Positions 1,017-62,120 of a stretch of DNA of 64,000 bases are shown one piece after another. Source of the stretch: an uncultured Gammaproteobacteria bacterium (GTDB lineage: Bacteria; Pseudomonadota; Gammaproteobacteria; JAKDMP01); assembly GCA_964586925.1 (NCBI GenBank), contig CAZPJI010000002.1:64039-128038 (forward strand), read 5' to 3'. Below the pieces are notes generated by a model. It worked only from the letters and a program-made list of their open reading frames with translations, was not told the origin of the DNA and did not search any database. A program made the position numbers and the translations under genes. Each line of letters starts with the position of its first letter. The stretch's first letter is position 1.

Positions 1017-1138
1017 TTCAGCCTCGTCCAGACTGACGGTGATTGCACTGGACGCCAGATCGTGCTTTACTTTCAGACGTTTGATTGGCCCATACGCCGG
1101 ATTTGGGCGTGTACTTATTCATTGTGGAGGATGGCGCC

Positions 1139-3265
1139 ATGCTGAAACGAATTCCCCTGGTACTGATTGCTTCGTTTGCTTTGCTGGCCGGCTGCGGCGT
1201 AAGCAGCAACAATCCGCCGCCGAGCAACAGTTTCCAAGCCGAGTTTTATATTACAAGCACTGTCAGCAATTATTCGACGGGCTTCAACATACCCTTCCCG
1301 AATGACCTCTACTTCAACGGCTCGACAGATGGAACAGTCAATATCCCAGGGCTAACCGATCCCAGCAATTACTCCGACCCGCTGGTTGCCATCAACGCGC
1401 TGGATGGATTCTCCAGCACCGCGCCCATCACGGAACAGTTCAACAAACCCATTGACCCCAAATCCCTTTCGGGCAACATCTATGTCTTCTCGGTCACCAC
1501 CGATCCGACCCAGGGTTACGCCGTCACCGGCGTCAACGGCCTGCTCACGGAAGGCACCGACTACACGCTGAGCGTCTCGAGTTCCGATCCCTCGGTGCTG
1601 GAAATCACGCCGACCGGCACCCTGGGCGCCGACAAATCCTTCATGGTCGTGATTACCAGCGGGGTCAAGGACACCAACGGCGACCCGGCCCAGGCATCGC
1701 CCAATTTCACCACGATCAAAGACGCCCTCGCGACCAACAAAGTCCCCTCCAACCCGACACTTGCAAGCGTCATGCCTCTGTTCGGGGCCATGCTCACCGC
1801 CGCCAACCAAGCCGCCGGTATCACGCCGGACAAAGTCAGCATGATCTGGACCTTCACCACACAGTCGGAGGGCGACGTACTCCAGAACATTGCCAAAAAC
1901 GCGCAGCCGGGCACGATGGCCCTTCAGGACCTGGGCAAGACCACCAAGGACATCAACCCACAGCTCCAGGGCTACGCCGAAGTCTTCGTCGGCAAGCTGA
2001 GCATCCCCTACTACGCCGGCATCCCTTCGAGCAGCGACCCGACCGCGCCGTTGACCAATTTCTGGCATGCCGCCAACGGCGGTTTCCTGACCCGCTACAA
2101 CACCCAGGCAGCGCCCACGGGCACGGTGACCGTGCCAGTCATCATGACGATCCCGGCTCAGGGCTCGCCCTATTTTGCGGGTGGCGGCACCTATCCCTCC
2201 GCCGGCTGGCCGGTGGCCATCTTCCAGCACGGCATCACCCGCGACCGGCTCGATGATCTGGCCGTGGCGGACACGTTCGCGCAGTTCGGCATTGCCACCA
2301 TCGCCATCGACCTGCCGCTGCACGGCGTGACCGACCCGAACAACCCGTTCTATGACAACCAGCTCGCCGCCGGCGCGCCCACCAATGTGACTACCGGAGT
2401 CGAGGAGCGCACGTTCAATCTCCCGGCCCCAGCGCCCGCAACGGGCATAGCGGCATCGGGCACGTACTTCATCAATCTCAACTATCTGCTCACCAGTCGC
2501 GACAATCTGCGCGAATCGGTGGCGGATCTCCTGCACCTGACCGAAACTCTGCCATCTGCGCAATTCGGCACGATCAACAGCGGAACCCCAACCATCGAGA
2601 AGTTCAACACGCTGGCCACCTACTACTCGAGCATTTCGCTGGGCTCGATCGTCGGCATTCCCTACCTGGCGGAAGTGCCCAACATCCCCGGCTACGGAAC
2701 CAGCATTGATGTACAGTCGGCCACGCTGTCGGAACCGGGCGGCAAGATCGCCTACCTGCTCCAGACCTCGCCGACCTTCAGCCCGGAGATCAACCAGGGC
2801 CTTGCCCAGATCGGCCTGGTTCCGGGAACGCTTGGCTATGACACCTTCTTCCAGGATGCCCAGACCGCAGTTGATTCGGGCGACCCGCTGAACTATGCCG
2901 CGACCGCAGCCGCCAACATACCGATCAACATGACCGAAGTCGTCGGCAGCTCCTCCAATCCGCCGGATCAGGTCGTGCCCAACTGGACCGAGGATCTCTT
3001 GGTCAATGCCATGGGCCTGAAGACCTACACCACGTCGACTGTAGACACCAGTGGTATCCGCGGCCTGGTGAAGTTCAACTCGGGTGTTCATGGATCGTTG
3101 CTGGATCCGACCTCCGATCCGCTGGTCACCCAGCAGATGCAGATCGAGATGGGCGTGTTCGCGGGCGGCTGCCTGCCTGGCAGCGTACCGGGCTGCCCAT
3201 CCACTGGCGGGCTGCCGAACGGACAGACCATGGACATCGCGATTCCGAGCGTCGTGGTGCCCTGA
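1139..3265 (+). CDS. Large secreted lipoprotein, ~708 aa. It may be a lipase/esterase-like hydrolase, but that function is not established
   Basis: The N-terminus MLKRIPLVLIASFALLAGCGV is a type II signal peptide with a lipobox (LAGC). A GGAGGA RBS sits 8 nt upstream of the ATG at 1139. The protein is long and Thr/Ser/Gly/Pro-rich. It has a weak SISLGS motif but no canonical GxSxG. A rho-independent terminator follows. The lipase assignment is only a guess. Confidence 0.55.
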   Translation: MLKRIPLVLIASFALLAGCGVSSNNPPPSNSFQAEFYITSTVSNYSTGFNIPFPNDLYFNGSTDGTVNIPGLTDPSNYSDPLVAINALDGFSSTAPITEQFNKPIDPKSLSGNIYVFSVTTDPTQGYAVTGVNGLLTEGTDYTLSVSSSDPSVLEITPTGTLGADKSFMVVITSGVKDTNGDPAQASPNFTTIKDALATNKVPSNPTLASVMPLFGAMLTAANQAAGITPDKVSMIWTFTTQSEGDVLQNIAKNAQPGTMALQDLGKTTKDINPQLQGYAEVFVGKLSIPYYAGIPSSSDPTAPLTNFWHAANGGFLTRYNTQAAPTGTVTVPVIMTIPAQGSPYFAGGGTYPSAGWPVAIFQHGITRDRLDDLAVADTFAQFGIATIAIDLPLHGVTDPNNPFYDNQLAAGAPTNVTTGVEERTFNLPAPAPATGIAASGTYFINLNYLLTSRDNLRESVADLLHLTETLPSAQFGTINSGTPTIEKFNTLATYYSSISLGSIVGIPYLAEVPNIPGYGTSIDVQSATLSEPGGKIAYLLQTSPTFSPEINQGLAQIGLVPGTLGYDTFFQDAQTAVDSGDPLNYAATAAANIPINMTEVVGSSSNPPDQVVPNWTEDLLVNAMGLKTYTTSTVDTSGIRGLVKFNSGVHGSLLDPTSDPLVTQQMQIEMGVFAGGCLPGSVPGCPSTGGLPNGQTMDIAIPSVVVP

Positions 3266-8329: not shown

Positions 8330-9105
8330 ATACCGCGACCCTGAATACCTGGCGCCGGCGCGACACGCTGGCCGTCTACCTGCGCGAAGCCGCCTTCCAG
8401 TTCTGGACCGTGCTGCGCACACCCGGCTTCGCGTTGCCGACCCTGCTCTTCCCCACCATTTTCTACCTCTTTTTCGGGCTGTTGTTCGGTCATGACAAAG
8501 ACGGCAACGTCGCGACCTACATGCTCGCCACCTACGGCACCTTCGGCATCATGGCACCCGCACTATTCGGATTCGGCGTGGGCATCGCCATGGAGCGCGA
8601 GCACGGCATCCTCGCCTTGAAGCGCGTCAGCCCCATGCCGCCGATGGCCTACCTGTTCGCCAAGGCAATGATGGCCATGCTCTTCGCGCTCGTCATACTC
8701 ACCCTATTATCGGCGCTGGGCGTCCTGTTCGGGCACGTACGCTTGACTGGCGGACAGTGGTTCACGTTGTACCTGACGTTGATCCTCGGCACCCTGCCCT
8801 TCTGCGCCCTGGGTCTCGCTATCGGACTACGTGCCGGAGGCCAGTCCTCGCCCGCGATCATCAATCTCATCTACCTGCCCATGTCGATCCTGTCGGGACT
8901 CTGGGTGCCACTGCACCTGTTCCCCCATTGGCTGCAGGCATTCGCACAGGCACTGCCCGCCTATCATCTGTCGCGTATCGCGCTGGGCATCGTGCACATG
9001 AGCGGCGACAGCCATCCCCTAGTCCATCTGATCTACCTCGCCGGATTCACCGGTGTCTGCCTGTTTGCGGCGCTGCGGGGCTGGCGCCGCATCCAGGACC
9101 GCTGA
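8326..9105 (+). CDS. ABC-2 family transporter permease
   Basis: 259 aa with six predicted TM helices and no ATPase motifs. Its start ATGA overlaps the stop of the ATPase gene. The LSGLWVP region is typical of ABC-2 permeases. Confidence 0.75.
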   Translation: MNTATLNTWRRRDTLAVYLREAAFQFWTVLRTPGFALPTLLFPTIFYLFFGLLFGHDKDGNVATYMLATYGTFGIMAPALFGFGVGIAMEREHGILALKRVSPMPPMAYLFAKAMMAMLFALVILTLLSALGVLFGHVRLTGGQWFTLYLTLILGTLPFCALGLAIGLRAGGQSSPAIINLIYLPMSILSGLWVPLHLFPHWLQAFAQALPAYHLSRIALGIVHMSGDSHPLVHLIYLAGFTGVCLFAALRGWRRIQDR

Positions 9106-10889: not shown

Positions 10890-10931
10890 CCCAAGCGCTT
10901 CGAACGCCAACAACTGTATCGCAAAGGAAAA

Positions 10932-10957
10932 GGGGTGGCTGCCAACGCAGCCACCCC
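10932..10957. terminator. Bidirectional hairpin terminator between the convergent RR gene and the S53 protease gene
   Basis: Stem ggggtggctg / cagccacccc with a ccaacg loop. A-run on the plus side (a T-run for the minus-strand transcript). Confidence 0.6.
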
Positions 10958-10981: not shown

Positions 10982-13900
10982 TCAGGAGGTTGTCTTGATG
11001 CGCTCCTGCTTGCGGCCCAGCAATATTGCGAGACCGAACAGCAAGGCCAGAACCGGCCAGCCGAAGCTGCCGCCACCGCTCGATGACGGTGCCTTATTGG
11101 CTACTGTGGTCGAATTATTAACCGAGCCGTCCTGAGGTTCCTGAGCCGAAGCCGTTGCCATCACCTCATACTCCCCGGTCTTGTCTATATGGGCAACGAG
11201 CACGACATTCGCCTGATCCCCCTGAGCCAAATCACCGATCGGGCAAACGACCACACCCGCATTCGAGGAACAACTGCTGCCTTGTTCCGTAACGAAGGAC
11301 AGGCTGGACGGCAAATTGACCGTTAACACAGTCTGCGTAGCCGTTCCGTCACCCTTGATTGCTTCATTGGTCACGGTGAAATCGAAGGTCACGTTGGTTC
11401 CCGTCTTGACCGACGTCGGATCGGCGGTGCCTGATACCTTTAGGGCTACGGGCTGCGGCTCCCAGTCTATGGTTACCGGCACATTAATCGGGCCGTAAGG
11501 CGACTTGTTCGCAACGCTTAAGTATGCCCTGGAAGTCGTAAACGCCTTCTGTCCCGTGCCATCGACGGTGAGCTGGATAGTTGCTGTAGCCCCCGCCTGT
11601 AAGGTACCGGTCGCCGGCGCCATGCTGAGCCAGGAAGCTTGTGGCAACTTACCGCATTGCTGAGTGTAGCCAGGGAGGACTCTGGTCACATTAGTGATTA
11701 CAGGACCAAAGATATTGAAAGCGGTGATCCCTCCGGTTTGATACAGACCACAGGCATGACCTCCCCGTGTAATTGCCGTGGGCAGATTCGGCAACGGGAA
11801 CCAGCTATTGGTCTGAGGATCGTAGGCCTCACCCTCATTGACCAGATTGCCACCCCCATCGACGCCTCCGTCAACCAGGAGAAGTCCGTTTGCCGCCGTA
11901 TAGAAAGACTCGCCCAGCGGAACGAACATGGGGGCAATAGACGACCAACTGTTGGACAATGGATCGTATACATAGCCATCCCCTACAGCTGCGCTTCCCT
12001 GCATGCCCCCGGCACAATAGAGCTTGCCATCGATCGCCCCGCACGAGGCAAATGCAACCGCTTGCGGGTAGTTCGCGGCCGAGGTCCAACTATCCGAATA
12101 GGGGTGGTAAACCTGAACGGCATTTGTCGGAGTACTGCACGGGCCATCAATGCAGCCACCCACGAGGTATAGTGATCCGTTCAGAACCGCGTAGGCGCTT
12201 CCCCCCGCAGCAGGCACCGGATTCGACGCGCCAGTGCTCCATTGTCCGGTTACCGGATCATAAATATCCGTCTCGGCTACCGGATTGGCCGCTGCACCTG
12301 CTGCCCAGCCATCGGCAACATAGTACTTGCCATCGATAAATGCCGAGGCAGCCGCTTGTCGAGCCACTGGTGCATTCGCAATGGGTGACCAGCTGTCGTC
12401 CTTGGGATCGTAGACAAACGCCGAACTGTCTATGCCAACAACCGACCCATACTGGCTATAGGTGCCCCCCATGGAATAGACCTTACCGGTTACCGGATCG
12501 CGCGCCATGGTGTTGTCGGCTGTCTCCTTTGGATAGGGGGCAATCGCCTGCCATACTGGAGCACTACTTGAACTGGGTGCAATAGTCGGGCTGGTTTCAA
12601 CTGAATTCGCCTGCGCGGCTTTGGACTGGGCGTGCATAGATACCCATGACAGACTCGCCGTTAGCCAGGACGGGTTGGCGACCGGAACTTGAATCAGGGG
12701 CGCACCACCGCCCGTGGCGGGTGACTGCTGGGTAGCCGGGGCCGGAGCATCGATTCCCACGACCCTGTACTGTCCAGGTGCACTTCCGGCATTGCTTAGC
12801 GCAAAGGACGCGGTCGCCGAACTGTTTACCATCACATGCAATGTGAACTGCCCGGGGTTGGCCCCCATCTTTGCTGTCTTGAGCGCAAAGTTCTGGGTGA
12901 CGACGCTATTGTCGTTTAGAGTTATCCCCGCTGTTGCTGTGGAATAGTTGCTCGCAGCGGTTGTGGTCAGTGTGTACTGCCCCGCTTTATCGAAGAACAA
13001 ATAGAATCCTACCGGAAGATTCGGATCGGAATAGTTTTCGACCGTATCCGCATTCGTGCCGTTTCCGTCTGCAACGTGTGCGCCGAGGATGCCCTTGCCT
13101 GTATTGGCGTCACTCACCTGGCCCATGACAAGACCGCCCGAGACAGGTTGACAGGTCCCAATCACGACATCGTCAATCTGGGCAAGTGTAGAACTGTAAG
13201 ATGCCGGACCATAAAAGCGCCAGCGCAGCTGGAAGTCTCCACTCGTCGGGAGATAGGGAGAGAGATCAACACTTTCATCTTCTCCATTCGCCCCGTTAGC
13301 AGGATGGCCCGACGTCCAATGCAGAATGTTGGTCCACGTTGATCCACCGTCCGTCGTGATATCGAGATCGAATGGCATCGTGGAACCGCCACCATAAAAG
13401 GCTTTGTACCTCAAAACAGCCGCGCCAGTCAGCGATGTCGCCGAAATCGGCGGTGTGACGAGCGAGGTATCGAAAGCAGGGTAAGGCGGATTATTGCTGT
13501 AGTTGACGCCGAGGGCGCCATTGGCCTCTGCGGCCGTACCCGTCCCGCCCGTTTGGTTTCCATAGTTTCCAGGGGCATTCGAGAGTTCCCATATAACGGG
13601 ACTGCTTGCAGGATTGGTGACAGTCCAACCGGTGGGCGGGAAACTCGGATTATTAAAGTCATTGCTGAACCCGCCAGCCTGGAACTGATAACCCGGCGCC
13701 GAGCAGGTGCTCGCGACAGCGAGCGGGAAATTCTCGTTCACGTCCGCTGAGACTGTAACGGTTTTCGATACCGTCTGATACCCGTCAAAAGCCGCGGCTA
13801 CGTGTATTGCATAGCCATAACCCTGCGGAAGCTTCACACTGTAGGCGCCGGTAGCGGGGTCGGTCCATATGTCCGCCACCTGGAGATCTTTCGGCTTACC

Positions 13901-16081
13901 ATAGCCTGGCGGACTATTGCTAATTGTCACCGAGACCTCGGCATAGAGTCCATAGCCATGGCCTGATCCATCGGTTACCTTGCCTGAAACGGTATCCGTT
14001 GGCGCAGCGTCAAGAGTAAAGTCTTGCGTAGTCGTGGCGCTATCGGTGACACTGACTGATGCTGTGCCAAGTGCATAACCGAAGGCACCAACGCTGATGG
14101 CATGACTGCCTGCCGGCAAGACAAACGAGTAATTGCCATCGGTCCCGGTGGGCCCTTCATAGCTGCCATCGACACTGACCTCCGCGCCGGCAACCGGATT
14201 TCCATCGACATCGGTCACTGTGCCGCTCAGAGTTCCGGATGGGCTGGTCACGCCCAGGTGTGAGAGAAAACTGGTCGCATTGGGACTGCCCCAACCCGTC
14301 GGGTGATCCCAGTCTACTGCCGCGCAGGACGACGAACCATCGGGCAATTCGCCGTTGCAACCCGTTGTGATGTCGTGAAAATCGGCAGCATAATTGCCGG
14401 CATTGACATCGCCATATATCAACGTATTCGACTGCCCCAACGAAACGTCGCTGTTCTGGGACACGCCGATGGCGAACAAGGCTGCAAGCTGCGGTGCTAC
14501 TGCACTCGTGCCGTAGACGGCACCAAAACCTCGCTGTGAATCGTATACGACATAATCGCTTCCGTTCTGGCCACCCGAATTCAACGCCATGTCCGAATTC
14601 ATGCGCATGCCGTTACTGGGAACGCCTGGCCCCGTCTGCCAGGACGGTTGGGTAAACAACTGGCTGATCGCACCGCCTGTGCCCGGCGCACCACTATAGC
14701 TGGGCGACCAGGCCGTCTCACTGCCATAAGTGCCACTGATGTCGGCAATGGTCAATAAACTGCCGTTTGCAGTCGTTATATAAGGACTGGAGGAAGGAAA
14801 ATCGGCATTGTTTCCGGTACCGTCGCCATTGGGAATGTCCGCAGCGCCATTGTCACCGGCGGCGGCGAACATGGAAATTCCCTCGGCGGCCCCCTGCATG
14901 AAAATCTGGTCCGCCGTCATGCCCAGACTGCCCCAATAGAATTCGGGCGCCCCCCAACTCGTCGTCATGACCTGAGACGTATCGTCATTCACAAACTCGT
15001 TGAAAGCATCGACAAATGTCGTGAAATAAGGGTTTGCTGCCAAATACACGTTTTGGGTAATTCCCGGCGCCATGGCACCGCTCCACTCGATGTCGAGCAG
15101 TGTTTCACCCATACCGTCAGTCAACCCTTCATCGCCGTCCACTGGAATTACATTTACCGTATGACTGGGCAGACCATAGGCGTTCCAGAAAGCGCTGGCT
15201 GAATCATTGGATCCAAGGCCCGAACTGTCGGCGGTAATGATTGCCACCGATACACCCTCGCCATTTCTTTGATCGGTAATACTGGGCCAGTCGTAAGCAG
15301 TGGCGATTTGTGAAGGATCGAAATACGCAGAGGAGGAAGTTGCCGCGGGCGGCGATAGCGATACCTGGGAGTTGACAACTCCGGCACGTCCCGGCAACGG
15401 CTTGAAATTCGAATGCGGGCGCATCATCTGGAAATGATCAAGGCCCAGTACATTGAGTACGACGCCAGCTACCGCCCGCGGGATTCGTATTCGATCTTTG
15501 GTGCTTGGGAAAGTGCGTCCATTCAGTTTGTAATTGTTGATACGGATGGAAAAAGCACGCTCGAAGGCGCCAGTGGTTCCCACGGCATGAATCAAAGTGC
15601 GGTTGGCAGAGATGCTTTGCACCTGTATCTGATTCCGTTGCAGGAATTTCTTCACTACGTCGACTTGTGTTTGCGTCGGTCCGTATTGCCGAGCGAACTG
15701 TTGCGGCGTAAGGAAATGATGATATTGAGAGCTACCGGGATTCTGAACTTCCTCAAGGAATTGCTTCAGCTTCCGCGTTTTGCGCAGCTTCAGGCTAATC
15801 GTCAATTTCATGGCGGCCGAGCTTTCGCGGGAACCCAGGTTCTCAGCCCTGGAGAGCAAAGTTAAATTGCCTTGCGGGGCCATGCGGACAAATGCGCTCG
15901 CCGCGCCGTTTCGACGGGCGTTCGCTATCCCCCAGGAAGTCAAACCGGAGGGCTTGAGCTGCTTCGTAACTGGCGCTATCGCCGGGGAAGCGTAAGCAAC
16001 AGGAAGAAAAGCGACTACCCCGGTCGCCAAGAAAACACCAACCGCGGCAAAGGCGGAGAGAGGCTTGAATCGACGGCTCAT
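10982..16081 (-). CDS. Giant secreted multidomain sedolisin-family (peptidase S53) protease, 1699 aa. Domain order: signal peptide, pro-kumamolisin activation domain, S53 catalytic domain, CarboxypepD_reg-like domains, Kelch beta-propeller, DUF11/CARDB-like domain, GlyGly-CTERM-like C-terminal anchor
   Basis: N-terminal signal MSRRFKPLSAFAAVGVFLATGVVAFLPVAYA. Prodomain region QYHHFLTPQQFARQYGPTQTQVDVVKKFL is typical of pro-kumamolisin. The catalytic domain contains the GTSAVAPQLAA (SGTSxxAP) serine motif. GTLSGTVTDVDGNPVAGAEVSV marks carboxypeptidase-regulatory-like beta-sandwich domains. Six Kelch-like blades are visible (YSMGG.., YVADGW.., YLVGGC.., LYCAGGM.., LLVDGGVDG..). The C-terminus GGGSFGWPVLALLFGLAILLGRKQERIKTTS is Gly-Gly, then a TM helix, then basic residues. 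GC content is visibly lower than the flanks. Confidence 0.8.
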   Translation of the reverse strand: MSRRFKPLSAFAAVGVFLATGVVAFLPVAYASPAIAPVTKQLKPSGLTSWGIANARRNGAASAFVRMAPQGNLTLLSRAENLGSRESSAAMKLTISLKLRKTRKLKQFLEEVQNPGSSQYHHFLTPQQFARQYGPTQTQVDVVKKFLQRNQIQVQSISANRTLIHAVGTTGAFERAFSIRINNYKLNGRTFPSTKDRIRIPRAVAGVVLNVLGLDHFQMMRPHSNFKPLPGRAGVVNSQVSLSPPAATSSSAYFDPSQIATAYDWPSITDQRNGEGVSVAIITADSSGLGSNDSASAFWNAYGLPSHTVNVIPVDGDEGLTDGMGETLLDIEWSGAMAPGITQNVYLAANPYFTTFVDAFNEFVNDDTSQVMTTSWGAPEFYWGSLGMTADQIFMQGAAEGISMFAAAGDNGAADIPNGDGTGNNADFPSSSPYITTANGSLLTIADISGTYGSETAWSPSYSGAPGTGGAISQLFTQPSWQTGPGVPSNGMRMNSDMALNSGGQNGSDYVVYDSQRGFGAVYGTSAVAPQLAALFAIGVSQNSDVSLGQSNTLIYGDVNAGNYAADFHDITTGCNGELPDGSSSCAAVDWDHPTGWGSPNATSFLSHLGVTSPSGTLSGTVTDVDGNPVAGAEVSVDGSYEGPTGTDGNYSFVLPAGSHAISVGAFGYALGTASVSVTDSATTTQDFTLDAAPTDTVSGKVTDGSGHGYGLYAEVSVTISNSPPGYGKPKDLQVADIWTDPATGAYSVKLPQGYGYAIHVAAAFDGYQTVSKTVTVSADVNENFPLAVASTCSAPGYQFQAGGFSNDFNNPSFPPTGWTVTNPASSPVIWELSNAPGNYGNQTGGTGTAAEANGALGVNYSNNPPYPAFDTSLVTPPISATSLTGAAVLRYKAFYGGGSTMPFDLDITTDGGSTWTNILHWTSGHPANGANGEDESVDLSPYLPTSGDFQLRWRFYGPASYSSTLAQIDDVVIGTCQPVSGGLVMGQVSDANTGKGILGAHVADGNGTNADTVENYSDPNLPVGFYLFFDKAGQYTLTTTAASNYSTATAGITLNDNSVVTQNFALKTAKMGANPGQFTLHVMVNSSATASFALSNAGSAPGQYRVVGIDAPAPATQQSPATGGGAPLIQVPVANPSWLTASLSWVSMHAQSKAAQANSVETSPTIAPSSSSAPVWQAIAPYPKETADNTMARDPVTGKVYSMGGTYSQYGSVVGIDSSAFVYDPKDDSWSPIANAPVARQAAASAFIDGKYYVADGWAAGAAANPVAETDIYDPVTGQWSTGASNPVPAAGGSAYAVLNGSLYLVGGCIDGPCSTPTNAVQVYHPYSDSWTSAANYPQAVAFASCGAIDGKLYCAGGMQGSAAVGDGYVYDPLSNSWSSIAPMFVPLGESFYTAANGLLLVDGGVDGGGNLVNEGEAYDPQTNSWFPLPNLPTAITRGGHACGLYQTGGITAFNIFGPVITNVTRVLPGYTQQCGKLPQASWLSMAPATGTLQAGATATIQLTVDGTGQKAFTTSRAYLSVANKSPYGPINVPVTIDWEPQPVALKVSGTADPTSVKTGTNVTFDFTVTNEAIKGDGTATQTVLTVNLPSSLSFVTEQGSSCSSNAGVVVCPIGDLAQGDQANVVLVAHIDKTGEYEVMATASAQEPQDGSVNNSTTVANKAPSSSGGGSFGWPVLALLFGLAILLGRKQERIKTTS

Positions 16082-16265
16082 ATTATTTGCTCCTGAAATA
16101 CCTGATTATCAAAATTTGTCTACGAGGTCCCCTGGTTCGCCTCGCGGCAACCTCGGTTGAAGTATCTCAAAGAGTAGCTATGGAATTTTGGCGGTCTTTT
16201 GCCATGGCGTATAACCGCCAATTTCAGGAGAATTGTCTCCCAGCGACCATTTTCTTTGTCAACTC

Positions 16266-17324
16266 TCAGGTAGAAACGTCAGGAATATCGGCTTCCCCGT
16301 CTGACAGCTGCAAGGCGCAAAGCCAACCCAACTGGAAGCGGGTACGCGCATTCAAAACACGCATCAACTCAGCAATCCGCCTCTCCAGGGTACGTTGCGA
16401 GATGTTCAGATCATACGCGATGGTCTTGTCATTCAATCCCGCGGCCATCAGGACAATCAGTTCCTTGGATTCAAGGCTCAGCATGGACTCGGATACGCCA
16501 ATTTGCGGCCGGCTTTCCTGACCGAATGAAATAGGTGTAGCCCGCTCCCAAATCATTTCGAACAATTCATAGAGCGCGTCAAGCAGAGACGAAGATCGAA
16601 CCAGCAAGGCCGGACTATCCAGTTCGCCCAGGTTCAATGGAATCAACGCGAGACGGTGATCTGCCAAAACCAGCTTGAGCGGCAACTCCGGGGCCACCCT
16701 GACCTCCTCTCCCACAGCCATGTCGGAACGAATGCTTTGCACTACGGAGGGGATAGCCATAAGACCGGATTCAATAACTGTCCTGTACCGCACCCCCCTT
16801 TTTAGCGCTTCTATCTGGCCCGGATGATCTTCCTCGGCAGGTCTATTCAATTGCGATACCCGCATCGGCGCCCGCATCAGGGTGATGAATTCGTTTTCGA
16901 CGGTTCGATCCATCTGCTCGAGAATCTGGCGCTCTGCGTCACGACTGGTAATGAGTTCAACCATTTGCTTGTGTTCGTCATGGTTTTGCACAGAGTTAGC
17001 CTGTTCCTGCAACTCCTGGATTGTGTGCTGGGTCTCCAGCAAGGCTTTCTGTTGTTGGAGAAACAACGCGCCCAAGGCAATATCGGGCGCTGATGGCAGA
17101 TAACGCCGCGACCGCTCAGGCGAATGAGTAACCAGCCCCATGGCTTCTATTGATTCCAGCAGCCCCTGTGTCTTTCTCGGTCCGAGCGATAATGCACGCG
17201 CGACGTCGCTCGCACTCGCACCGGGATGCTCCAGGATCCAGCGATACACTCGCTCTTCCGCCTCGCTGATGCCGAGACTGGCTAATGACTGTTCCTTTGT
17301 GGATTCGTTTTGGTTTACAGACAT
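16266..17324 (-). CDS. LuxR-family transcriptional regulator with an extra N-terminal TrmB/MarR-like winged HTH (dual DNA-binding-domain architecture)
   Basis: C-terminal LuxR HTH: ELIVLMAAGLNDKTIAYDLNISQRTLERRIAELMRVL. The N-terminus LGISEAEERVYRWILEHPGASASDVARALSLGPRKTQGLLESIEAMGLV resembles a TrmB-type wHTH. It lies immediately upstream of, and is co-oriented with, the protease gene. Lower GC. Confidence 0.75.
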   Translation of the reverse strand: MSVNQNESTKEQSLASLGISEAEERVYRWILEHPGASASDVARALSLGPRKTQGLLESIEAMGLVTHSPERSRRYLPSAPDIALGALFLQQQKALLETQHTIQELQEQANSVQNHDEHKQMVELITSRDAERQILEQMDRTVENEFITLMRAPMRVSQLNRPAEEDHPGQIEALKRGVRYRTVIESGLMAIPSVVQSIRSDMAVGEEVRVAPELPLKLVLADHRLALIPLNLGELDSPALLVRSSSLLDALYELFEMIWERATPISFGQESRPQIGVSESMLSLESKELIVLMAAGLNDKTIAYDLNISQRTLERRIAELMRVLNARTRFQLGWLCALQLSDGEADIPDVST

Positions 17325-17447
17325 ATTGCCCCCTGTGCAAAACCACGAAACAGTTTAGCCCGCAAATATCTTCCTGGCTGCAATCGACGTTAATCGTCAA
17401 ACGCGAAAACCGTTTCAAACACCGAAACCGTGCGGCTTTGTATAGGT

Positions 17448-26148: not shown

Positions 26149-27687
26149 TTATCGCGCCGGGTCGTACTCGATTTCGGAATCCGGCCGCACGGCGATCAGG
26201 CGGCGTTGGATCGGCCGGGCGAACAGGGCGAGCAAAACCCCTACCCCGATGCCCACCGCGGCGATGGTGAGGTAGATGTGGGGCATGTCATGCACGTCGT
26301 GCGCACTGAAACGACCCGCGATCAGGCCGGCCAGCAACTCACCGAGGGCCAGGAACAGAAACCAGGCCCCCATCATGCGGCCGCCGTAGCCGCGCGGTGC
26401 GAGCTTGGTGGTCGCCGACAGGCCCACCGGACTCAGGCACAACTCGCCGATGGTATGCAGCAGATAGGTCAGCGCCAACCAGGTCGGCAACGCCTTGTGC
26501 CCGGCAACCACGACCCAGGCGGCGCCGGTCATCACCAGGAAACCGATGCCCATGAAGATCATGCCGAGGGCGAACTTGAGCGGCGTCGAAGGATCGAGGT
26601 TGCGCCGCCCCAGCCAGATCCACAGCCAGGCGAAGAACGGCGCCAACACGATGATGAGCAGGGAGTTCTCGCTCTGGAACCAGGACGCCGGGAAATTCCA
26701 GCCGAATACGCTGAGTTGTGTGTAGCGCTCGGCGAAGAGATTGAAGTTGGAGCCGGCCTGCTCGTAGCCCGCCCAGAACAGCACCTGGACCAGCAGAAGA
26801 ATGGCCAGCGCCGCCAGTCGTTTTCGATCACGGGCACTCAACTCACCCCGAAAAAACACCCAGGCGAGAAAACCCAACCCGAGAGCGAGGAGCAAAAACC
26901 CTGACCACACCGCAAGCGCGTGCGGATGATAGACAATCACTCCGAGGTAACCCAACACCACCAGGAGCGCCAGGATGCCAAGGCCCAGGACCAGTGCAGA
27001 CCAACCGCGGCGCCGGGAACGGCGCTCGAGCGTCGCATCCTGGAAATGCCCGGGCACACCGCGCCCCGCGTTGCCGAGGTAACGGATCGTGTAGCGATAC
27101 TGGATCAGGCCCAGTACCATGCCGACACCCGCCGCCGCAAAGCCGTAGTGCCAATTCACCTTCTGGCCAAGGAACCCGCACACGAGGGGGCCTATAAAGC
27201 CGCCCAGGTTGATGCCCATGTAATAAATCGAAAACCCGGCATCGCGCCGCGAACCGCTTTCCGGATAAAGATCGCCCACCATGGCACTCGCATTCGGCTT
27301 CAGCAATCCCGTGCCCAGCACGATCAGGATCAGGCCGATAAAGAAGGATTCCTTGCTGGGGATTGCCAGCGTGAAGTGGCCGAGCGCGATGATGATGCCC
27401 CCGTACCAGACAGACCGCTGCTGGCCCAGCAGGCGATCGGCGATCCAGCCGCCGGGCAACGAAGTCAGGTAGACGCCCGCCATATAGAGTCCGTAGATCG
27501 CAGTCGCCGTCTTGTCGGTAAAGCCGAGCCCGCCTTGCTTGACCGCCGCGGCCATGAACAAGATCAACAGCGCGCGCATGCCGTAGAAGCTGAAGCGCTC
27601 CCACATCTCGGTGAAAAACAGTGTCGCAAGACCGCGCGGATGGCCCAACCAGGTTTTCAACTCGGGGGCGGATGCCTGATCGCTCAT
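26149..27687 (-). CDS. Proton-dependent oligopeptide transporter (POT/PTR2 family, MFS)
   Basis: 512 aa, ~14 TM helices. POT signatures ERFSFYGMRALL and GGWIADRLLGQQRSVWYGGIIIALGH. Confidence 0.85.
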   Translation of the reverse strand: MSDQASAPELKTWLGHPRGLATLFFTEMWERFSFYGMRALLILFMAAAVKQGGLGFTDKTATAIYGLYMAGVYLTSLPGGWIADRLLGQQRSVWYGGIIIALGHFTLAIPSKESFFIGLILIVLGTGLLKPNASAMVGDLYPESGSRRDAGFSIYYMGINLGGFIGPLVCGFLGQKVNWHYGFAAAGVGMVLGLIQYRYTIRYLGNAGRGVPGHFQDATLERRSRRRGWSALVLGLGILALLVVLGYLGVIVYHPHALAVWSGFLLLALGLGFLAWVFFRGELSARDRKRLAALAILLLVQVLFWAGYEQAGSNFNLFAERYTQLSVFGWNFPASWFQSENSLLIIVLAPFFAWLWIWLGRRNLDPSTPLKFALGMIFMGIGFLVMTGAAWVVVAGHKALPTWLALTYLLHTIGELCLSPVGLSATTKLAPRGYGGRMMGAWFLFLALGELLAGLIAGRFSAHDVHDMPHIYLTIAAVGIGVGVLLALFARPIQRRLIAVRPDSEIEYDPAR

Positions 27688-35336: not shown

Positions 35337-37472
35337 CTAGGTGCGGACGACGCGCAGTACGGACGCCGTCTTGCGCAGGCGCCGGATGATACGCGCCAGG
35401 TGCGCCCTGTCGCGAACGGTCAACTCAAGCGTCAATATCGAGATACCGTCTTCGCGCTCGGCCACCTGGGCATGGTGAATATTGGAGCCTTCCGCGGAAA
35501 CCGTTGCCGCCACGGAAGCGAGCACGCCGCGCTCGTCCTCGAGCTCCAACCTCAGTTCGGCCGGGTAATCGCGGCGCGCTTCTTCATGGAAAGCGATATC
35601 GACCACGCGGTCGCTGTCCTTCTGGGCAATCAGGTTGCCGCAATCGACCCGGTGCACCACGAGTCCCTTGCCGCGCGTAAGAAGGCCCGCAATGCGGTCC
35701 CCGGGTATGGGGTGGCAACAACGGGCCAGCGACACGGCAAAACCCTCGGTGCCTTGAATTTCAATCGGTGCCGCCTGCGAGAGTGGCGCCGCCTCGGAAT
35801 CAGTTACGAATCGGCGGGCCACCAGTAATGCCGGCAATTCGCCAATGCCGATGCGGCGCAACAATTCCTCGGTGGAATCGATTTTGAGTTCCCCGGCGAC
35901 CCGCTCCAGTTCCCGGTTCTTGCGCTTGAGATCGAGTTTGTAGCTTTCCAGGGCCTGCTGCAACATACGCCGACCCAGGCGCTCCGCATCCTCGGCGCGC
36001 ATATCACGCAGGAAGCGGCGCAAGGCCGAACGCGCTTTTGCGCTCACCGCGAAATTGAGCCAGGCCGGGTTGGGCCGGGCGTTGCGCGCCGTGATGACCT
36101 CCACGGTCTGCCCGGTCTGCAACTGCGTGCGCAGCGGCACGACGCGCCGGTCGACCTTGGCCGATACACAGGCATTGCCGATGTCGGTGTGTACCGCATA
36201 AGCAAAGTCCACCGGCGTGGCACCGCGCGGCAACTCGATGATCTCGCCCTTGGGGGTAAACACGTAGATATCGTTGGGCGCGAGATCGATCTTGGCATGC
36301 TCGAGGAACTCGATCGGCGTCGCGCTCTCGGCATTGATCTCGTCCAGGCTACGCAACAGGTCGCGCGCCCGTATTTCGTCCGAAGAACCGGCGCCCTGCC
36401 CCGTCTTGTACATCCAGTGCGCGGAAATGCCGTTCTCGGCAACCTGCTCCATGGCTTCGGTGCGGATCTGCACTTCGACCGGCTGTCCGGTGGGACCGAC
36501 GATCACGCTGTGCAGGGACTGATAGCCGTTGGCCTTGGGCAGGGCAATGTAATCCTTGAAACGCCCCGGTACCGGCTTGTAAACACCGTGCACCAAGCCC
36601 AGGACACGGTAGCAATCGTCCACATTCTCCGTGACGATGCGAATACCGTGGATATCCATGACTTCGCTGAGCCGCAGGCTCTTGCCGCGCATTTTGCGAT
36701 AGATGCTGTAGAGCGCCTTGTCGCGCCCCCTCACCTGTGCGTTGAGACCGACCTTGGCACAGCGGGCCGCCAGCGTTTTGACCATCTTCGGTACGGCGCT
36801 TACGCGCAGGCCGCGTTCCCGGCGCACGGCCCGGCCGAGTACCCGGTAACGATCGGGATACAGGCTGCGAAATCCCAAATCCTCGAGCTCCAGCCGAATT
36901 CGGCGCATGCCCAGCCGATGAGCGATCGGCGCGTAGATCTCCAGCGTCTCGCGGGCGATGCGGCGGCGTTTTTCCGCGGGCATGACACCCAGCGTGCGCA
37001 TGTTGTGCAGGCGGTCGGCGAGCTTGATCAGGATGACCCTCACGTCCGCCACCATCGCCAGCACCATCTTGCGGAAATTTTCCGCCTGGGCTTCGCGGCG
37101 GCTCTCGAAGCGGATCTGCGTCAGCTTGGAGACCCCGTCCACCAGGCGGGCGACTTCCTCGCCGAACAACTCGGCCAGTTCCCCGCGCTCGGCCGGCGTG
37201 TCCTCGATGACGTCATGCAGGAGCGCCGCCTCAAGCGTGGCGGCGTCGAGCGACATTTGGGCCAGGATGCGGGCCACGGCCAGGGGGTGAGTGATATAAG
37301 GCTCGCCGGTGAGGCGGCGCTGGTCGCGATGCGCCTCCTGGGCATACAGGTAGGCGCGTCGGACTTCCTCGATCTCTGCGGGCGCGAGATAGCGCGCCAG
37401 ATCGGCGGTCAGGTCGCTAAGCTTGCTTTCGCCAGCGGTTCCATGCGGCCCGGGTCGGTGTAGGGCACGCAT
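35337..37472 (-). CDS. spoT: Bifunctional (p)ppGpp synthetase/hydrolase SpoT
   Basis: HD hydrolase domain (HPLAVARILAQM...LLHDVIEDT), synthetase domain (RIKSLYSIYRKM-like YRKMRGK, DIHGIRIV), TGS and ACT C-terminal domains. Lies downstream of rpoZ as in E. coli. Confidence 0.9.
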   Translation of the reverse strand: MRALHRPGPHGTAGESKLSDLTADLARYLAPAEIEEVRRAYLYAQEAHRDQRRLTGEPYITHPLAVARILAQMSLDAATLEAALLHDVIEDTPAERGELAELFGEEVARLVDGVSKLTQIRFESRREAQAENFRKMVLAMVADVRVILIKLADRLHNMRTLGVMPAEKRRRIARETLEIYAPIAHRLGMRRIRLELEDLGFRSLYPDRYRVLGRAVRRERGLRVSAVPKMVKTLAARCAKVGLNAQVRGRDKALYSIYRKMRGKSLRLSEVMDIHGIRIVTENVDDCYRVLGLVHGVYKPVPGRFKDYIALPKANGYQSLHSVIVGPTGQPVEVQIRTEAMEQVAENGISAHWMYKTGQGAGSSDEIRARDLLRSLDEINAESATPIEFLEHAKIDLAPNDIYVFTPKGEIIELPRGATPVDFAYAVHTDIGNACVSAKVDRRVVPLRTQLQTGQTVEVITARNARPNPAWLNFAVSAKARSALRRFLRDMRAEDAERLGRRMLQQALESYKLDLKRKNRELERVAGELKIDSTEELLRRIGIGELPALLVARRFVTDSEAAPLSQAAPIEIQGTEGFAVSLARCCHPIPGDRIAGLLTRGKGLVVHRVDCGNLIAQKDSDRVVDIAFHEEARRDYPAELRLELEDERGVLASVAATVSAEGSNIHHAQVAEREDGISILTLELTVRDRAHLARIIRRLRKTASVLRVVRT

Positions 37473-58473: not shown

Positions 58474-61400
58474 TCAAGAACCGGCTACTACGCAATCACG
58501 GCCCTTGCGCTTGGCAGTGTAAAGGGCTTCGTCCGCCGCCTTGATCAACTCCTGGAGATTGCGCAGCCGGCCATCGCTGGTGGCCATGCCAATACTGACG
58601 GTGACCGAAAACTCCCGTTGCCCGCCGCGAAACGGATGACTCTTAACGGCCTGACGCATACGCTCCGCCACTTCACCTGCCTGCTCTGGATCGGTCTCCG
58701 GCAGGCATACTATGAATTCCTCGCCTCCATACCGGCCCATGAGATCGGGTTCGCGCAGAGTTTGACAGCAGGTCTGGCTGATTGCCCGCAACACTTCATC
58801 ACCGATCGTGTGCCCGCACGTATCATTAATGCGCTTGAAGTGATCGATGTCCAGCATCAACACGGACAGGGGATGCCCATAACGCACGCAGCGACTGAAC
58901 TCGACTTCCGCATATTCCGTAAATGCACGCCGTGTGTATACACCAGTCAAACTATCGGTCGTCGCCATATCCTCTAGTTGGTGGATCAGGTGCGCCTTCT
59001 CGAACATCACTCCAAGCTGATTGCAAAGAATGGAAGCAGTAGCGCACTCGGCAGAATCGAATGCCCGCTTCTGGCGCCCGATGATAAGAACATGCATGAG
59101 TCCATTAGCCATCAGCAAGGGCAACGCAAGATAGTGACAACGGCGTACCCCGATGCGTCTCTCAAGCGAACCCAACTCTGTTGCCGTCAGGACACAGGGA
59201 GTTCGACGCTGTCGCAAACGCCCCAGGCAACTGGCGTGCTCCAATGGCCACAGCGCCACCCGTTCTCTCTCGCCTTGTCCCAGGCCGCTATCTGCTACCA
59301 AACGCAAACCACTGGCTTCATCGACGAAGAACACGGCCCGTTCGTGGACCAGCAAAGCCGGAAGACGTTCCAGGAAAACACGCGATATATCGGATTCGCC
59401 CTGCAGGGGGGATACGGCTTCAATGAGGGCCTGCTGCGCTTCCGCCATGGCACGGCGCCGCTGCTCATAGGCCAAGTCACGTTTCTGACGAATGCGCCGG
59501 GCAAAAAGATAAAGCACAGTAATAGCGGCCGATACGGCAGCGAATACGTACAGCAGATAGGCCCACCAGGTCTCCCACGGCGGCGGCAGTATGGAAATAC
59601 CGAACCGCGCCTCTTGCTGACTCCATACGCCATCGCCACCCGCCCCAATAACACGCAACGTGTAATGCCCGGGATCCAGATTGGTGTAAGTAATCGTATG
59701 CCCTTCGTGCAATTGATGCCATTTGTGGTCAAAACCATCAAGGCGGTATTTGAAACGGTTGCGGTCCGGCAATGCAAAATCCAGAACCGCGACCCGGACA
59801 CTGAAGCTGTCACGGTCATAAGGCACGCTAATAGAATGCAATGTTCCCTTGGGGGTATTCAAGGGCACGCTATCGCCCATCACGCGCAGCCCGGTAATCA
59901 CGACCGGTGCCGAAGGCGACATCGCCCCGAGGGCATTCAGGTGGATTACGGCCAAACCGTTGATGCTGCCGAAATAGAGCGTGTCATTACTTCCAGCGTA
60001 AGCAGCGCCCTCGTTGAACTCCTCGTTGTACAATCCGTTTTCAACGTCATAATTGCGCACAGTGTGCTTGCTGGGATCAATACGGGCCAGCCCGCGGCTG
60101 GTTCCGACCCAGATATCGCCTCTGGGGCCCGGCAACACGCTGTAGATCATGGCGCTGGTCAGGCCGTTCGCTTCCGTGTAGCGGCGAAGTGTCCCCACAT
60201 TAGGCACGAAATGCGCCAGGCCGGTCGTGGTTCCTACCCAAAGACTCCCGTCCGCCGCCATCCGGCAGTCCAGAATATCGCTGGACGCCAATACATCGAG
60301 ATGGCCGTTTTCGTCGAGCGGCTTGCTGAAACTCCCGTGTTCGGGATCGAAAGAAAGCAGCCCTCGAGTCGTACCGATCCAGAGGGAATTGTCTCCTGCC
60401 TGGCATAGCGCCCACACGCCCGGCGATCGCAGGCTGCCCGGATAGCGCTTATCCGGTGAATAACGGTACAAAACCTTGCCGCTATGCGGATTCAGCTGTA
60501 CCAGTCCGTTGTTGGTGCCAATCCACAGGCGATTCCGGCTATCCTCGAAAATCATATTGACGCTGGCGCCCAGCCAGTCCGTACGTGAACGTTCCCCCAG
60601 AGAGTAATAGCGAAAGCCGTGGCTGGCCGGCAGATACCGATACACGCCATGCCCCGTCCCCATCCACAGACGCTGCTGATGGTCGGCATAAAGCACTTTC
60701 ACTGACGGGATCTCGCCATTGAAAACAGGCGCCGATGGCAATTTGATTTGCTTGAAGTGCGTACGCGTCGAATCAATCTGCGTCAGGCCGCCATCACTGG
60801 CCACCCAAAGTTCATGCTCGGGACTCTCGTAAACGGCCCAGACGAAGTTGTTTGCCAGGCTTTGCGGGTTGCCGGGTTCGTGCCGGAAACGCCCAAAAGC
60901 CCGGCTGCGGGGGTTGTAGTAATTGATGCCGGCGCCATCCGTTCCCACCCATACCAGGCCACTGCTGTCGCGCATGATGTTGAACAAGTAATTGCTGGAG
61001 AGACTGGCCGGATCCGTCAAGCTGTGGCGGAATGTCCTGAAGCCGCGCTTGTAACCGTCGAAACGACTCAATCCGCCACCGTATGTCGCCACCCAAATAC
61101 GCCCGGTGCCATCCTCCACGATCCCGCTGACCCAGCTGGTCGGCAGACTGCTCCGGTCGCCGCGATGATGTGAAAAGAACCGGACCTTGCCGTCCACATC
61201 ACCCAATACCGCAAGGCCGGTGCGAGTGCCTACCCAGAGGCGGTTATCCGTGCTCTCATAGATTGCTTCGGTCCTGGAGTGCGTCAATGCCGCATAGGCT
61301 TGGGAGTCTTCAGGGACGTGGTAACGCCGCAACTGATCCACCCGCGGCGCATAGTAGAACAATCCGTTGACCGTACCCACCCAGATGCGGCCGTTCCGGT

Positions 61401-62013
61401 CCTGAAACAAGGCCGTGACTTTCTGGAGGGCTTTGTCTTTTCCCGGCAAATGGTAATGACGAAATCGTGCATGCGATTGCAGACGGTCGAGACCGGCAGC
61501 CGTTCCCACCCAAAGGCGATCCGAGCGGTCGACCAACACAGTCTCGACGCTGTTGCTGGACAAGCTGGTGGCAACGTTAGTGTGGTGACGGTAATGCGTA
61601 AAACTGTGTTGCCCCGGAAGCAACCGATCCAGGCCGTTCGTACTGCCTATCCAGAGCGTGTCGTTTGCGGAAAAGGCAAGGCTGCTGACCGTCCCGCCGG
61701 AAAGCGAATGCGGATCGGTCGGGTTATGGCGAAAAGCCACATATCCGTATCCATCATAGCGTTGCAATCCCGCTTCGGTCGCAAACCACATATACCCGAC
61801 GGGCCCCTGAGCGATAGCCGTAACAGTGCTCTGCGCCAAGCCATTGCTGACGCCGATATGCTGAAACACAGGCACAACGTCCGGCGTTGGCACCGGTGGG
61901 TTCGCCATTACCGTCAGCGAAGGCGCCACAACGATCACCGCTGCAGCAAACACCGCATTAGCCCAATGCCAAAGCCTGTATTGTTCTTTTCGCCCCGGGC
62001 TCCCCACTCTCAT
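58474..62013 (-). CDS. Diguanylate cyclase (GGDEF) with a very large periplasmic two-component-regulator-propeller (Reg_prop / Y_Y_Y) sensor region, ~1179 aa
   Basis: Signal peptide, then >12 Reg_prop-like repeats (WVGTxxGL motifs) and a Y_Y_Y-like segment. A single TM helix (WWAYLLYVFAAVSAAITVLYLFA) follows. C-terminal GGDEF with RYGGEEF active site and RxxD I-site. Start chosen at MRVGSPG. The ORF extends to 62277. Confidence 0.8.
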   Translation of the reverse strand: MRVGSPGRKEQYRLWHWANAVFAAAVIVVAPSLTVMANPPVPTPDVVPVFQHIGVSNGLAQSTVTAIAQGPVGYMWFATEAGLQRYDGYGYVAFRHNPTDPHSLSGGTVSSLAFSANDTLWIGSTNGLDRLLPGQHSFTHYRHHTNVATSLSSNSVETVLVDRSDRLWVGTAAGLDRLQSHARFRHYHLPGKDKALQKVTALFQDRNGRIWVGTVNGLFYYAPRVDQLRRYHVPEDSQAYAALTHSRTEAIYESTDNRLWVGTRTGLAVLGDVDGKVRFFSHHRGDRSSLPTSWVSGIVEDGTGRIWVATYGGGLSRFDGYKRGFRTFRHSLTDPASLSSNYLFNIMRDSSGLVWVGTDGAGINYYNPRSRAFGRFRHEPGNPQSLANNFVWAVYESPEHELWVASDGGLTQIDSTRTHFKQIKLPSAPVFNGEIPSVKVLYADHQQRLWMGTGHGVYRYLPASHGFRYYSLGERSRTDWLGASVNMIFEDSRNRLWIGTNNGLVQLNPHSGKVLYRYSPDKRYPGSLRSPGVWALCQAGDNSLWIGTTRGLLSFDPEHGSFSKPLDENGHLDVLASSDILDCRMAADGSLWVGTTTGLAHFVPNVGTLRRYTEANGLTSAMIYSVLPGPRGDIWVGTSRGLARIDPSKHTVRNYDVENGLYNEEFNEGAAYAGSNDTLYFGSINGLAVIHLNALGAMSPSAPVVITGLRVMGDSVPLNTPKGTLHSISVPYDRDSFSVRVAVLDFALPDRNRFKYRLDGFDHKWHQLHEGHTITYTNLDPGHYTLRVIGAGGDGVWSQQEARFGISILPPPWETWWAYLLYVFAAVSAAITVLYLFARRIRQKRDLAYEQRRRAMAEAQQALIEAVSPLQGESDISRVFLERLPALLVHERAVFFVDEASGLRLVADSGLGQGERERVALWPLEHASCLGRLRQRRTPCVLTATELGSLERRIGVRRCHYLALPLLMANGLMHVLIIGRQKRAFDSAECATASILCNQLGVMFEKAHLIHQLEDMATTDSLTGVYTRRAFTEYAEVEFSRCVRYGHPLSVLMLDIDHFKRINDTCGHTIGDEVLRAISQTCCQTLREPDLMGRYGGEEFIVCLPETDPEQAGEVAERMRQAVKSHPFRGGQREFSVTVSIGMATSDGRLRNLQELIKAADEALYTAKRKGRDCVVAGS

Positions 62014-62120
62014 CCTCGTCTCCGGGCATTCCCGGCAGTATGGCGTAAATGCTTCAGACTTGCCAGTTGGCATTGCCCGGCCCGCACACCGCTCATTCTC
62101 GCCGCAATGCGATACAGGGC

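Follow-up and report, generated by a model that had tools for sequence, protein, structure and literature searches.

Characterised sedolisins such as kumamolisin (MEROPS S53) are single-module secreted enzymes of about 550 aa. GlyGly-CTERM-type surface proteases are already known as a class, and S8 and S53 proteases bearing this tail were noted in 2011; in Vibrio cholerae VesB, the tail directs the protein to rhombosortase, which cleaves it; the protein then receives a glycerophosphoethanolamine-containing moiety and is delivered to the surface by the type II system (PMC6219818, PMC13393428). Among transcriptional regulators, TrmB and TrmBL2 of the Thermococcales carry an N-terminal winged helix-turn-helix (wHTH), a coiled-coil helix and a PLD-like effector sub-domain, and the LuxR/GerE effectors DosR and VpsT end in a C-terminal four-helix helix-turn-helix (HTH). 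Here we describe a gene pair that combines features of these systems, a sedolisin-type protease of 1699 aa and a dual-HTH regulator of 352 aa, on the minus strand of a 64,000-nucleotide stretch of contig CAZPJI010000002.1 from an uncultured gammaproteobacterium (the window; feature coordinates are on its minus strand unless stated otherwise). We put a probability of roughly 0.62 on the reading that the pair is a self-contained cassette, one of an expanded family, in which a surface-tethered sedolisin-adhesin is controlled by a regulator acting through a 31-bp dyad element.

Checking the open reading frames (ORFs) of the window returned two co-oriented genes with the lengths, strand and coordinates given by an earlier sequence-based description (the initial annotation): the protease gene at 10982-16081 (1699 codons; ATG at 16081-16079, TGA at 10984-10982) and the regulator gene at 16266-17324 (352 codons). 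The exact protease product is found in public collections (P0001). It begins with a Sec-type signal peptide (residues 1-31, 15989-16081; MSRRFK..., a hydrophobic core and AYA/S) and a pro-kumamolisin activation domain (residues 81-217, 15431-15841; PF09286, E=3.7e-32, 112 bits versus a cut-off of 23.5). A phmmer search against the PDB aligned residues 92-607 to pro-kumamolisin (1t1e, E=6.6e-43), with GETLLDIE, AAAGDNG and GTSAVAP sitting on the Glu/Asp, oxyanion-Asp and Ser motifs of that structure. The S53 catalytic domain thus delimited covers roughly residues 250-607 (14261-15334), with Glu326, Asp330, Asp410 and Ser526 at the active site; no Pfam model matched the isolated catalytic domain, and its identity comes from the PDB sequence search. 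The protease shares with kumamolisin and sedolisin a prodomain and catalytic domain over about 500 residues, the Ser-Glu-Asp triad, the oxyanion Asp and the HDIT Ca-site motif. Because it aligns with S53 enzymes and an alignment of 33 relatives (44-73% identity) shows no variation at E326, D330, D410 or S526, the protease is very likely enzymatically active, and the initial annotation of an S53 protease with intact catalytic residues holds. The mature part is acidic (124 D+E versus 66 K+R), which is compatible with, though not diagnostic of, the acid-active, pepstatin-insensitive endo- or tripeptidyl-peptidase activity of the S53 family.

The protein closes with a tripartite tail (residues 1665-1699, 10985-11089) made up of SSSGGGS, a FGWPVLALLFGLAILLG helix and an RKQERIK basic cluster, with TTS as the last three residues. 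In a hydropathy scan with 19-mers, the only hydrophobic segments were residues 5-36, the signal peptide, and 1669-1690, within the tail. When the last 34-52 residues were scanned alone, the GlyGly-CTERM model TIGR03501 scored best among the curated models (16.7 bits versus a cut-off of 15.5), in agreement with the C-terminal sorting-type tail seen earlier. Nearly all full-length relatives share a GGGx(L/F)GW-helix-RRR ending. Across 43 tails of the family, the core of the helix is 35.5% Leu, 19.3% Ala, 15.9% Gly, 6.1% Val and 4.0% Ile, a composition close to the one published for GlyGly-CTERM helices (Leu 34, Gly 13, Ala 10 and Ile 6%; PMC3237569) and unlike that of ordinary transmembrane (TM) helices. 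A matching tail is present on a non-homologous FG-GAP/cadherin-like protein in the related locus L025. We consider the tail most likely to be a GlyGly-CTERM-type sorting signal. One relative's tail exceeded the cut-off for MYXO-CTERM (23.6 bits), and we rejected that assignment because the Gly motif of the family tails contains no Cys, which separates them from MYXO-CTERM, and the hosts are not Myxococcota.

Several results speak against sorting by rhombosortase. The TIGR03501 match was not reported when the whole protein was scanned, and only one of 10 other family tails scored above the model's cut-off (17.8 bits; three others reached 15.0, 14.5 and 13.2 bits, and the remainder gave no hit). 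By hidden Markov model (HMM) alone, GlyGly-CTERM membership is therefore borderline, and borderline HMM scores are typical of such a short, divergent signal (Haft and Varghese). Scans of the 64-kb window and of 83 sequences from related loci (1.28 Mb) revealed neither a credible rhombosortase (TIGR03902, with SGxxH and AHxxGxxxG motifs) nor a type II secretion gene; for rhombosortase, they relied on a filter for TM-rich ORFs and on the six-frame motifs G.SG...G...H..G...G and SG..HG, with no real rhombosortase as a seed. Such results would be expected if the tail were a lineage-specific signal for an enzyme other than rhombosortase, or a plain inner-membrane anchor that leaves the protease periplasmic or membrane-bound. 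We judge this unlikely, although it deserves more weight than the other alternatives considered below: GlyGly-CTERM is the best curated model for the window tail and is matched above its cut-off, the Leu/Gly/Ala-rich helix fits it, and the scans covered so small a fraction of any genome that the absence of the enzyme means little. Rhombosortase sorting of the protease is plausible but unproven. The protease differs from V. cholerae VesB and VesC and from the rhombosortase-dependent M36 metallopeptidase (NF038111) in catalytic class (S53 here, S1 or M36 there) and in its much larger size. Shorter S53 proteins of about 820-920 aa from other metagenome-assembled genomes (MAGs) labelled 'Proteobacteria bacterium' (L046, L049, L051-L053 and L055) have GGSGSMGLLGLL...-type tails that appear by eye to lie nearer the canonical SGGS-type GlyGly-CTERM motif.

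The regulator gene encodes two DNA-binding modules in one chain. Pfam matched TrmB (E=4.3e-10) and GerE (E=1.4e-6, 28.2 bits, above cut-off), and an AlphaFold2 model (mean predicted local distance difference test, pLDDT, 77.6) resolved a wHTH at residues 14-80 (17085-17285; 14-77 in the model), a long helix of 35 residues at 80-115, a PLD-like alpha/beta domain at 122-267 (16524-16961) and, in agreement with Pfam, a LuxR/GerE four-helix HTH at 284-343 (16296-16475). This makes the regulator a one-component protein of the TrmBL2 type to which a LuxR HTH has been added, a refinement of the dual-HTH description in the initial annotation. It shares the N-terminal wHTH, coiled-coil helix and PLD-like effector sub-domain with TrmB and TrmBL2, and, like TrmBL2, has no sugar-binding sub-domain; it shares the C-terminal four-helix HTH with DosR and VpsT, and has no receiver or autoinducer domain. 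It differs from all four in carrying both DNA-binding modules in a single chain. Its family is bacterial and large, with 1,489 representatives (at 50% identity) at E<=1e-30 in a profile search, nearly all of 320-360 aa.

The association of regulator with protease extends beyond the window. In 17 related loci, which include every close relative, a regulator homologue lies directly upstream of the protease, co-oriented with it and 150-600 bp from its start. The initial annotation had described an adjacent, co-oriented dual-HTH regulator, and these loci make the two genes evolutionarily linked neighbours. A third cluster of seemingly conserved neighbours proved to be an artefact, made up of antisense ORFs within the high-GC protease genes. 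We found no literature on TrmB-LuxR regulators beside proteases, and no experiments on the regulator family. Members of the family also stand ahead of FG-GAP repeat proteins in two loci (L025:729-4211 and L080:10001-12497), each with a TGGCG...CGCCA palindrome in the spacer; the L025 FG-GAP protein has the Gly-run/TM/Arg tail and the L080 protein does not. Elsewhere, proteins of ~600-760 aa adjoin eight paralogous protease genes (L011, L022, L026, L027, L028, L032, L033 and L037). By eye, these proteins combine a CadC/OmpR-type winged helix, one TM segment and TPR-like repeats, and they may represent an alternative type of regulator.

Between the two genes lies a spacer of 184 bp (16082-16265, GC 0.451), AT-rich as the initial annotation had described it. 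It contains a 31-bp dyad element, TGGCGGTTATACGCCATGGCAAAAGACCGCC (16190-16220), in which two GGCGG-N4-CCGCC-type inverted repeats stand 16 bp apart and are followed by an A-tract. This sequence occurs nowhere else in the window, against a chance expectation of 0 matches, and in an alignment of the eight closest loci it formed the one conserved block of otherwise unalignable spacers. We found it in 11 loci, in each case just upstream of the cargo gene, and nowhere else across the 1.28 Mb of related sequence. Even where the neighbouring two-component system is absent, the element accompanies the cassette, and it therefore belongs to the cassette. More distant paralogues carry other palindromes of 30-38 bp at the same position, often with a CATG centre and each with CAAAA behind it. 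For 12 of the 21 spacers, none of 100 shuffles equalled the observed palindrome score. Regulators at least 66% identical to that of the window share its palindrome type and most of those at or below 59% have another type, with L025 as the one exception. We infer that the palindromes are probably the cognate operators of the adjacent regulators. The 123-bp region 5' of the regulator, beyond the dinB stop codon (17325-17447, GC 0.48), does not contain the spacer palindrome.

Downstream of the element, the spacer holds a candidate -10 hexamer, GATACT (16161-16166), read by eye without support from a consensus scan, and a ribosome-binding site, AGGAG (16090-16094), 8 nt before the protease ATG (16081). 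Many loci have TAGACA, a 17-nt spacing and GATACT or AATACT 3' of the palindrome. A sigma-54 reading of TGGCAC in the element was discarded because, by eye, its GC does not fall in register for a -12 box. A scan of the whole window against Rfam gave no match, leaving the spacer with no known riboswitch or small RNA. A G+C-rich inverted repeat, GAGGTTGCCGCGAGGCGAACCAGGGGACCTC, lies between the -10 hexamer and the ribosome-binding site (16115-16150), has equivalents in L002 and L036, which with the window are the three closest loci, and may form a hairpin in the 5' untranslated region (UTR).

Some features of the locus fit less well with a dedicated regulator acting on the protease promoter from the dyad element. 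The window's sub-clade lacks a good -35 hexamer and has GATACT only, and the consensus promoter scan called no promoter in the spacer. The regulator does not have the C-terminal sugar-binding sub-domain of TrmB, with the GerE HTH at residues 284-343 instead; its very large family also adjoins other cargo and is thus not specific to proteases; and roughly one in two of the paralogous protease genes lacks a regulator of this kind upstream. The main rival to the operator reading is that the palindrome acts in RNA, where it would fold into a hairpin that terminates or stabilises the transcript of the regulator, or else shapes the 5' UTR of the protease. The dyad is strong, it comes directly after the regulator stop codon, and changes in one arm are matched in the opposite arm across loci, all of which a role in RNA would explain. 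However, symmetric changes in the arms are to be expected just as much if a dimeric protein binds the DNA, the arms of several paralogues are AT-rich and pair weakly, and the element is followed by an A-tract, not a U-tract, and fits no intrinsic-terminator pattern on either strand. We therefore hold an RNA-level role to be improbable.

We then compared the composition of the cassette with its surroundings. GC content is 0.557 for 10982-17324 versus 0.624 for the rest of the window, and GC content at third codon positions (GC3) is 0.60 for the protease (z=-3.1) and 0.61 for the regulator (z=-2.9), versus a mean of 0.759 (sd 0.050) for the 48 other ORFs; both genes are thus compositionally atypical, as first observed. 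The nearby cox genes have a low total GC, yet their GC3 stays at 0.77-0.84, indicating that the dip in the cassette is synonymous and does not come from amino-acid content. The same dip recurs in every related module that we examined, across several genomes (GC3 of 0.60-0.64 for regulators and 0.53-0.73 for proteases, versus 0.75-0.85 for flanking genes). In the closest relative, L002, the module is 73-74% identical to that of the window and the flanks are 65-88% identical; as the module falls within the range of the flanks, this copy looks about as old as its surroundings.

The position of the cassette varies among related genomes. In the window, it sits between dinB and a response-regulator gene, whereas in L002 it is found on the far side of a four-gene block encoding a two-component system and an ABC transporter, next to rpoH. 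In L003, from MAG CAWJLN01, a 70%-identical cassette lies exactly between two tRNA-Met(CAT) genes (8579-8655 and 15569-15645) that differ by 1 nt in sequence; the repeat is limited to the tRNA itself, with no integrase between the two genes. The dinB/response-regulator site of the same MAG (L019), whose flanks are 51-77% identical to those of the window, holds a 48%/52% paralogue. Having a paralogue at the syntenic site and the closest copy elsewhere suggests cassette replacement in CAWJLN01. Taken together, these three contexts indicate that the cassette relocates or is replaced as a unit.

The initial annotation had interpreted the pair as a horizontally acquired islet, that is, as 6.3 kb of foreign DNA taken up from a lower-GC donor. 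The GC3 difference (0.60-0.61 versus 0.76 in the other window genes), the AT-rich spacer, the variable position and the L003 copy between two tRNA-Met genes, a classic island site, would all suit a recent acquisition. In contrast, the dip is common to every related module in several genomes, identity to L002 is inside the flank range, and the close homologues all come from a single uncultured gammaproteobacterial lineage of roughly 60-65% GC. Repeats around the cassette were limited to short chance ones, with neither border repeats nor remnants of an insertion sequence (IS). We also found no tRNA in the window, and no integrase, transposase or IS element among the annotated neighbours. These results lead us to set the islet interpretation aside, and a recent horizontal acquisition now appears quite unlikely.

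Behind the catalytic domain, the protease of the cassette continues through about 1090 residues that characterised sedolisins do not have, comprising beta-sandwiches, a jelly roll, a propeller, an Ig domain and the membrane-sorting tail. Two carboxypeptidase-regulatory-like beta-sandwiches (PF13620) occupy residues 617-690 and about 697-784 (13730-14233), and a third lies at residues 986-1068 (12878-13126; PF13620, E=4.2e-5, isolated segment). Residues 786-982 (13136-13726) between them form a jelly roll of the MAM, gingipain 'cleaved adhesin' or reelin type, bracketed by invariant Cys793 and Cys977; Pfam gave no match for residues 785-985, and the fold was assigned from a PDB sequence search and a fold search. 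A Kelch beta-propeller follows at residues about 1176-1470 (11672-12556; PF01344, E=7.7e-36; designed six-blade Kelch 7ona, E=6e-44), where five YDPxxxxW motifs and a closing segment fit ~six blades. The name 'N-acetylneuraminic acid mutarotase' used by JGI was rejected for this part, as NanM/YjhT models scored 44-46 bits against cut-offs of 256-416. The last globular module (residues 1547-1660, 11102-11443; PF01345, E=6.7e-14, 52.6 bits versus a cut-off of 24.6) is a DUF11 domain, now named CLIPPER, an isopeptide-stabilised stalk domain typical of fibrillar adhesins (PMC12617251). Its Cys1604 and Cys1613 are invariant in the family, and the CLIPPER Lys-Asn pair, placed by eye from PMC12617251, is not kept: only 4 of 33 relatives have Lys at the position of K1548, and no conserved Asn lies near the C-terminal strand.

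The sandwiches, six-blade Kelch propeller and DUF11 domain had been recognised from the start, and the jelly roll had been missed. The size that was taken as unusual proves not to be, as S53 proteins of 900-2600 aa are common in metagenomes. In the literature, we found nothing on S53-Kelch proteins. The gingipains of Porphyromonas gingivalis (Kgp and RgpA) share the 'cleaved adhesin' fold, with no homology at the sequence level beyond the fold, and differ in being cysteine proteases (C25) of Bacteroidota with a type IX secretion C-terminal domain and an anionic lipopolysaccharide (A-LPS) anchor. That the protein is mainly an adhesin, with a protease head that is inactive or only processes itself, would suit the two-thirds of its length given to binding and stalk domains (MAM-like, Kelch, CLIPPER and sandwiches) and the CLIPPER domain typical of fibrillar adhesin stalks (PMC12617251), but is very improbable, since four catalytic residues and their motifs are invariant in 33 diverged relatives, arguing for selection on catalysis.

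From these results we propose how a surface-tethered sedolisin-adhesin cassette might work. The pre-pro-enzyme would be exported by Sec through its N-terminal signal peptide and kept inactive by its prodomain, with autocatalytic activation at acidic pH into a Ser-Glu-Asp peptidase being probable by analogy with sedolisins. Behind the catalytic head, a stalk of beta-sandwiches would carry two likely ligand-binding modules, the jelly roll and the Kelch propeller, and the CLIPPER Ig domain and a Gly-rich linker would lead into the Gly-motif/TM-helix/basic-cluster tail. By way of this tail, the protein may pass from an inner-membrane anchor through rhombosortase-type cleavage and lipid re-attachment to the cell surface, as VesB does, and end as a protease-adhesin tethered to the cell surface. 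The 31-bp dyad element is most likely the binding site of the regulator, which would thereby control the protease promoter, and the position of the element upstream of the promoter region suggests activation. A coiled-coil dimer of the regulator could present four HTH units to four half-sites, probably in an activating role. The biological role of the cassette is probably extracellular protein capture and digestion, and its family would appear to have expanded greatly in an uncultured soil gammaproteobacterial lineage, keeping its lower GC3 while its chromosomal position changes.

The family comprises about 45 clusters (at 90% identity) that share the architecture over at least 88% of their length, with longer forms, up to 3,600 aa, that add FG-GAP and cadherin-like modules. 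All members come from MAGs of uncultured Gammaproteobacteria, largely from soil surveys. In the MAG CAZKOE01 (L004-L044, L061 and L067), we counted about 30 distinct N-terminal gene starts on 26 contigs, some of them in tandem; either the paralogues have expanded to an extreme degree or the bin is mixed. The 2-kb contig L036 (JBAUWE010000181.1), assigned to a 'Terriglobia bacterium' bin, with a regulator 75% and a protease 67% identical to those of the window and the same palindrome, is probably a mis-binned gammaproteobacterial contig. For the host of the window, the SpoT (35337-37472) matches with 75-96% identity all come from uncultured material; below these, identity falls to 57% or less, and Natronospira proteinivora (56%) is the sole named organism among the listed matches. 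These matches indicate a deep lineage without a cultured representative among those listed.

Alone, the gene pair would be an ordinary, if large, secreted protease with its regulator. What is new is the S53-jelly roll-Kelch-CLIPPER build, the dedicated TrmB-LuxR regulator with its private palindromes, and the expansion and mobility of the cassette. A broader interpretation, which we offer tentatively and consider possible but on balance doubtful, is that the surface-protease cassettes kept by the lineage number in the dozens and are autonomous, each comprising a modular sedolisin-adhesin whose tail anchors it to lipid, a regulator of its own and a co-diversified private operator. The copies would be switched independently and would move as two-gene units without a recognisable mobility gene, at times to sites between tRNA genes. 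In this reading, the cassettes would do for protein degradation what polysaccharide utilisation loci do for polysaccharides, or would form a variable arsenal at the cell surface. If the cassette works as proposed above, about 30 copies in one genome would hint at substrate-specific extracellular proteolysis, a process of importance to nitrogen turnover in soil that has been poorly linked to specific genes. Surface display of the rhombosortase type would then extend to very large S53 proteases in an uncultured soil lineage. The dual-HTH TrmB-LuxR regulators and their 30-38-bp palindromes would likewise form a natural regulator-operator set, a model for insulation among paralogous regulators and a source of pairs usable as synthetic-biology parts.

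The cassette lies among core genes, with dinB, ctaB and the cox operon on the regulator side and, convergent on the protease side, a NarL-type response regulator, a HisKA_3 kinase, an ABC-2 transporter, rpoH and ftsXEY; recG, spoT and rpoZ are more distant in the window. These neighbours place the cassette within the core chromosome. A hairpin that resembles an intrinsic terminator (10932-10957; 11-bp stem, 9 G-C pairs), followed by TTTTCCTTTG on the minus strand (10922-10957 in all), lies 25 nt past the protease stop codon in the convergent gap towards the response-regulator gene, which ends at 10889. This structure had been called a bidirectional terminator. We found the T-run on the protease (minus) strand only, with none on the plus side, and the hairpin looks like a one-sided terminator of the protease gene instead of a symmetric bidirectional one.

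Three other genes of the window may be mentioned. A POT/PTR2 proton-dependent oligopeptide transporter is encoded 10 kb from the protease (26149-27687, minus strand); it fits peptide uptake, and there is no evidence of linkage to the cassette. On the plus strand, a 726-aa ORF (1085-3265) combines a bacterial lipase N-terminal domain with a Big_5 Ig-like domain and probably encodes another secreted hydrolase. A large sensor gene (58474-62070, minus strand) joins a Reg_prop/Y_Y_Y periplasmic propeller, a TM segment and a cytoplasmic region to a GGDEF diguanylate cyclase; its GC3 is lowered (0.65, z=-2.3), and the TTG start listed for it at 62277 is probably too far upstream.

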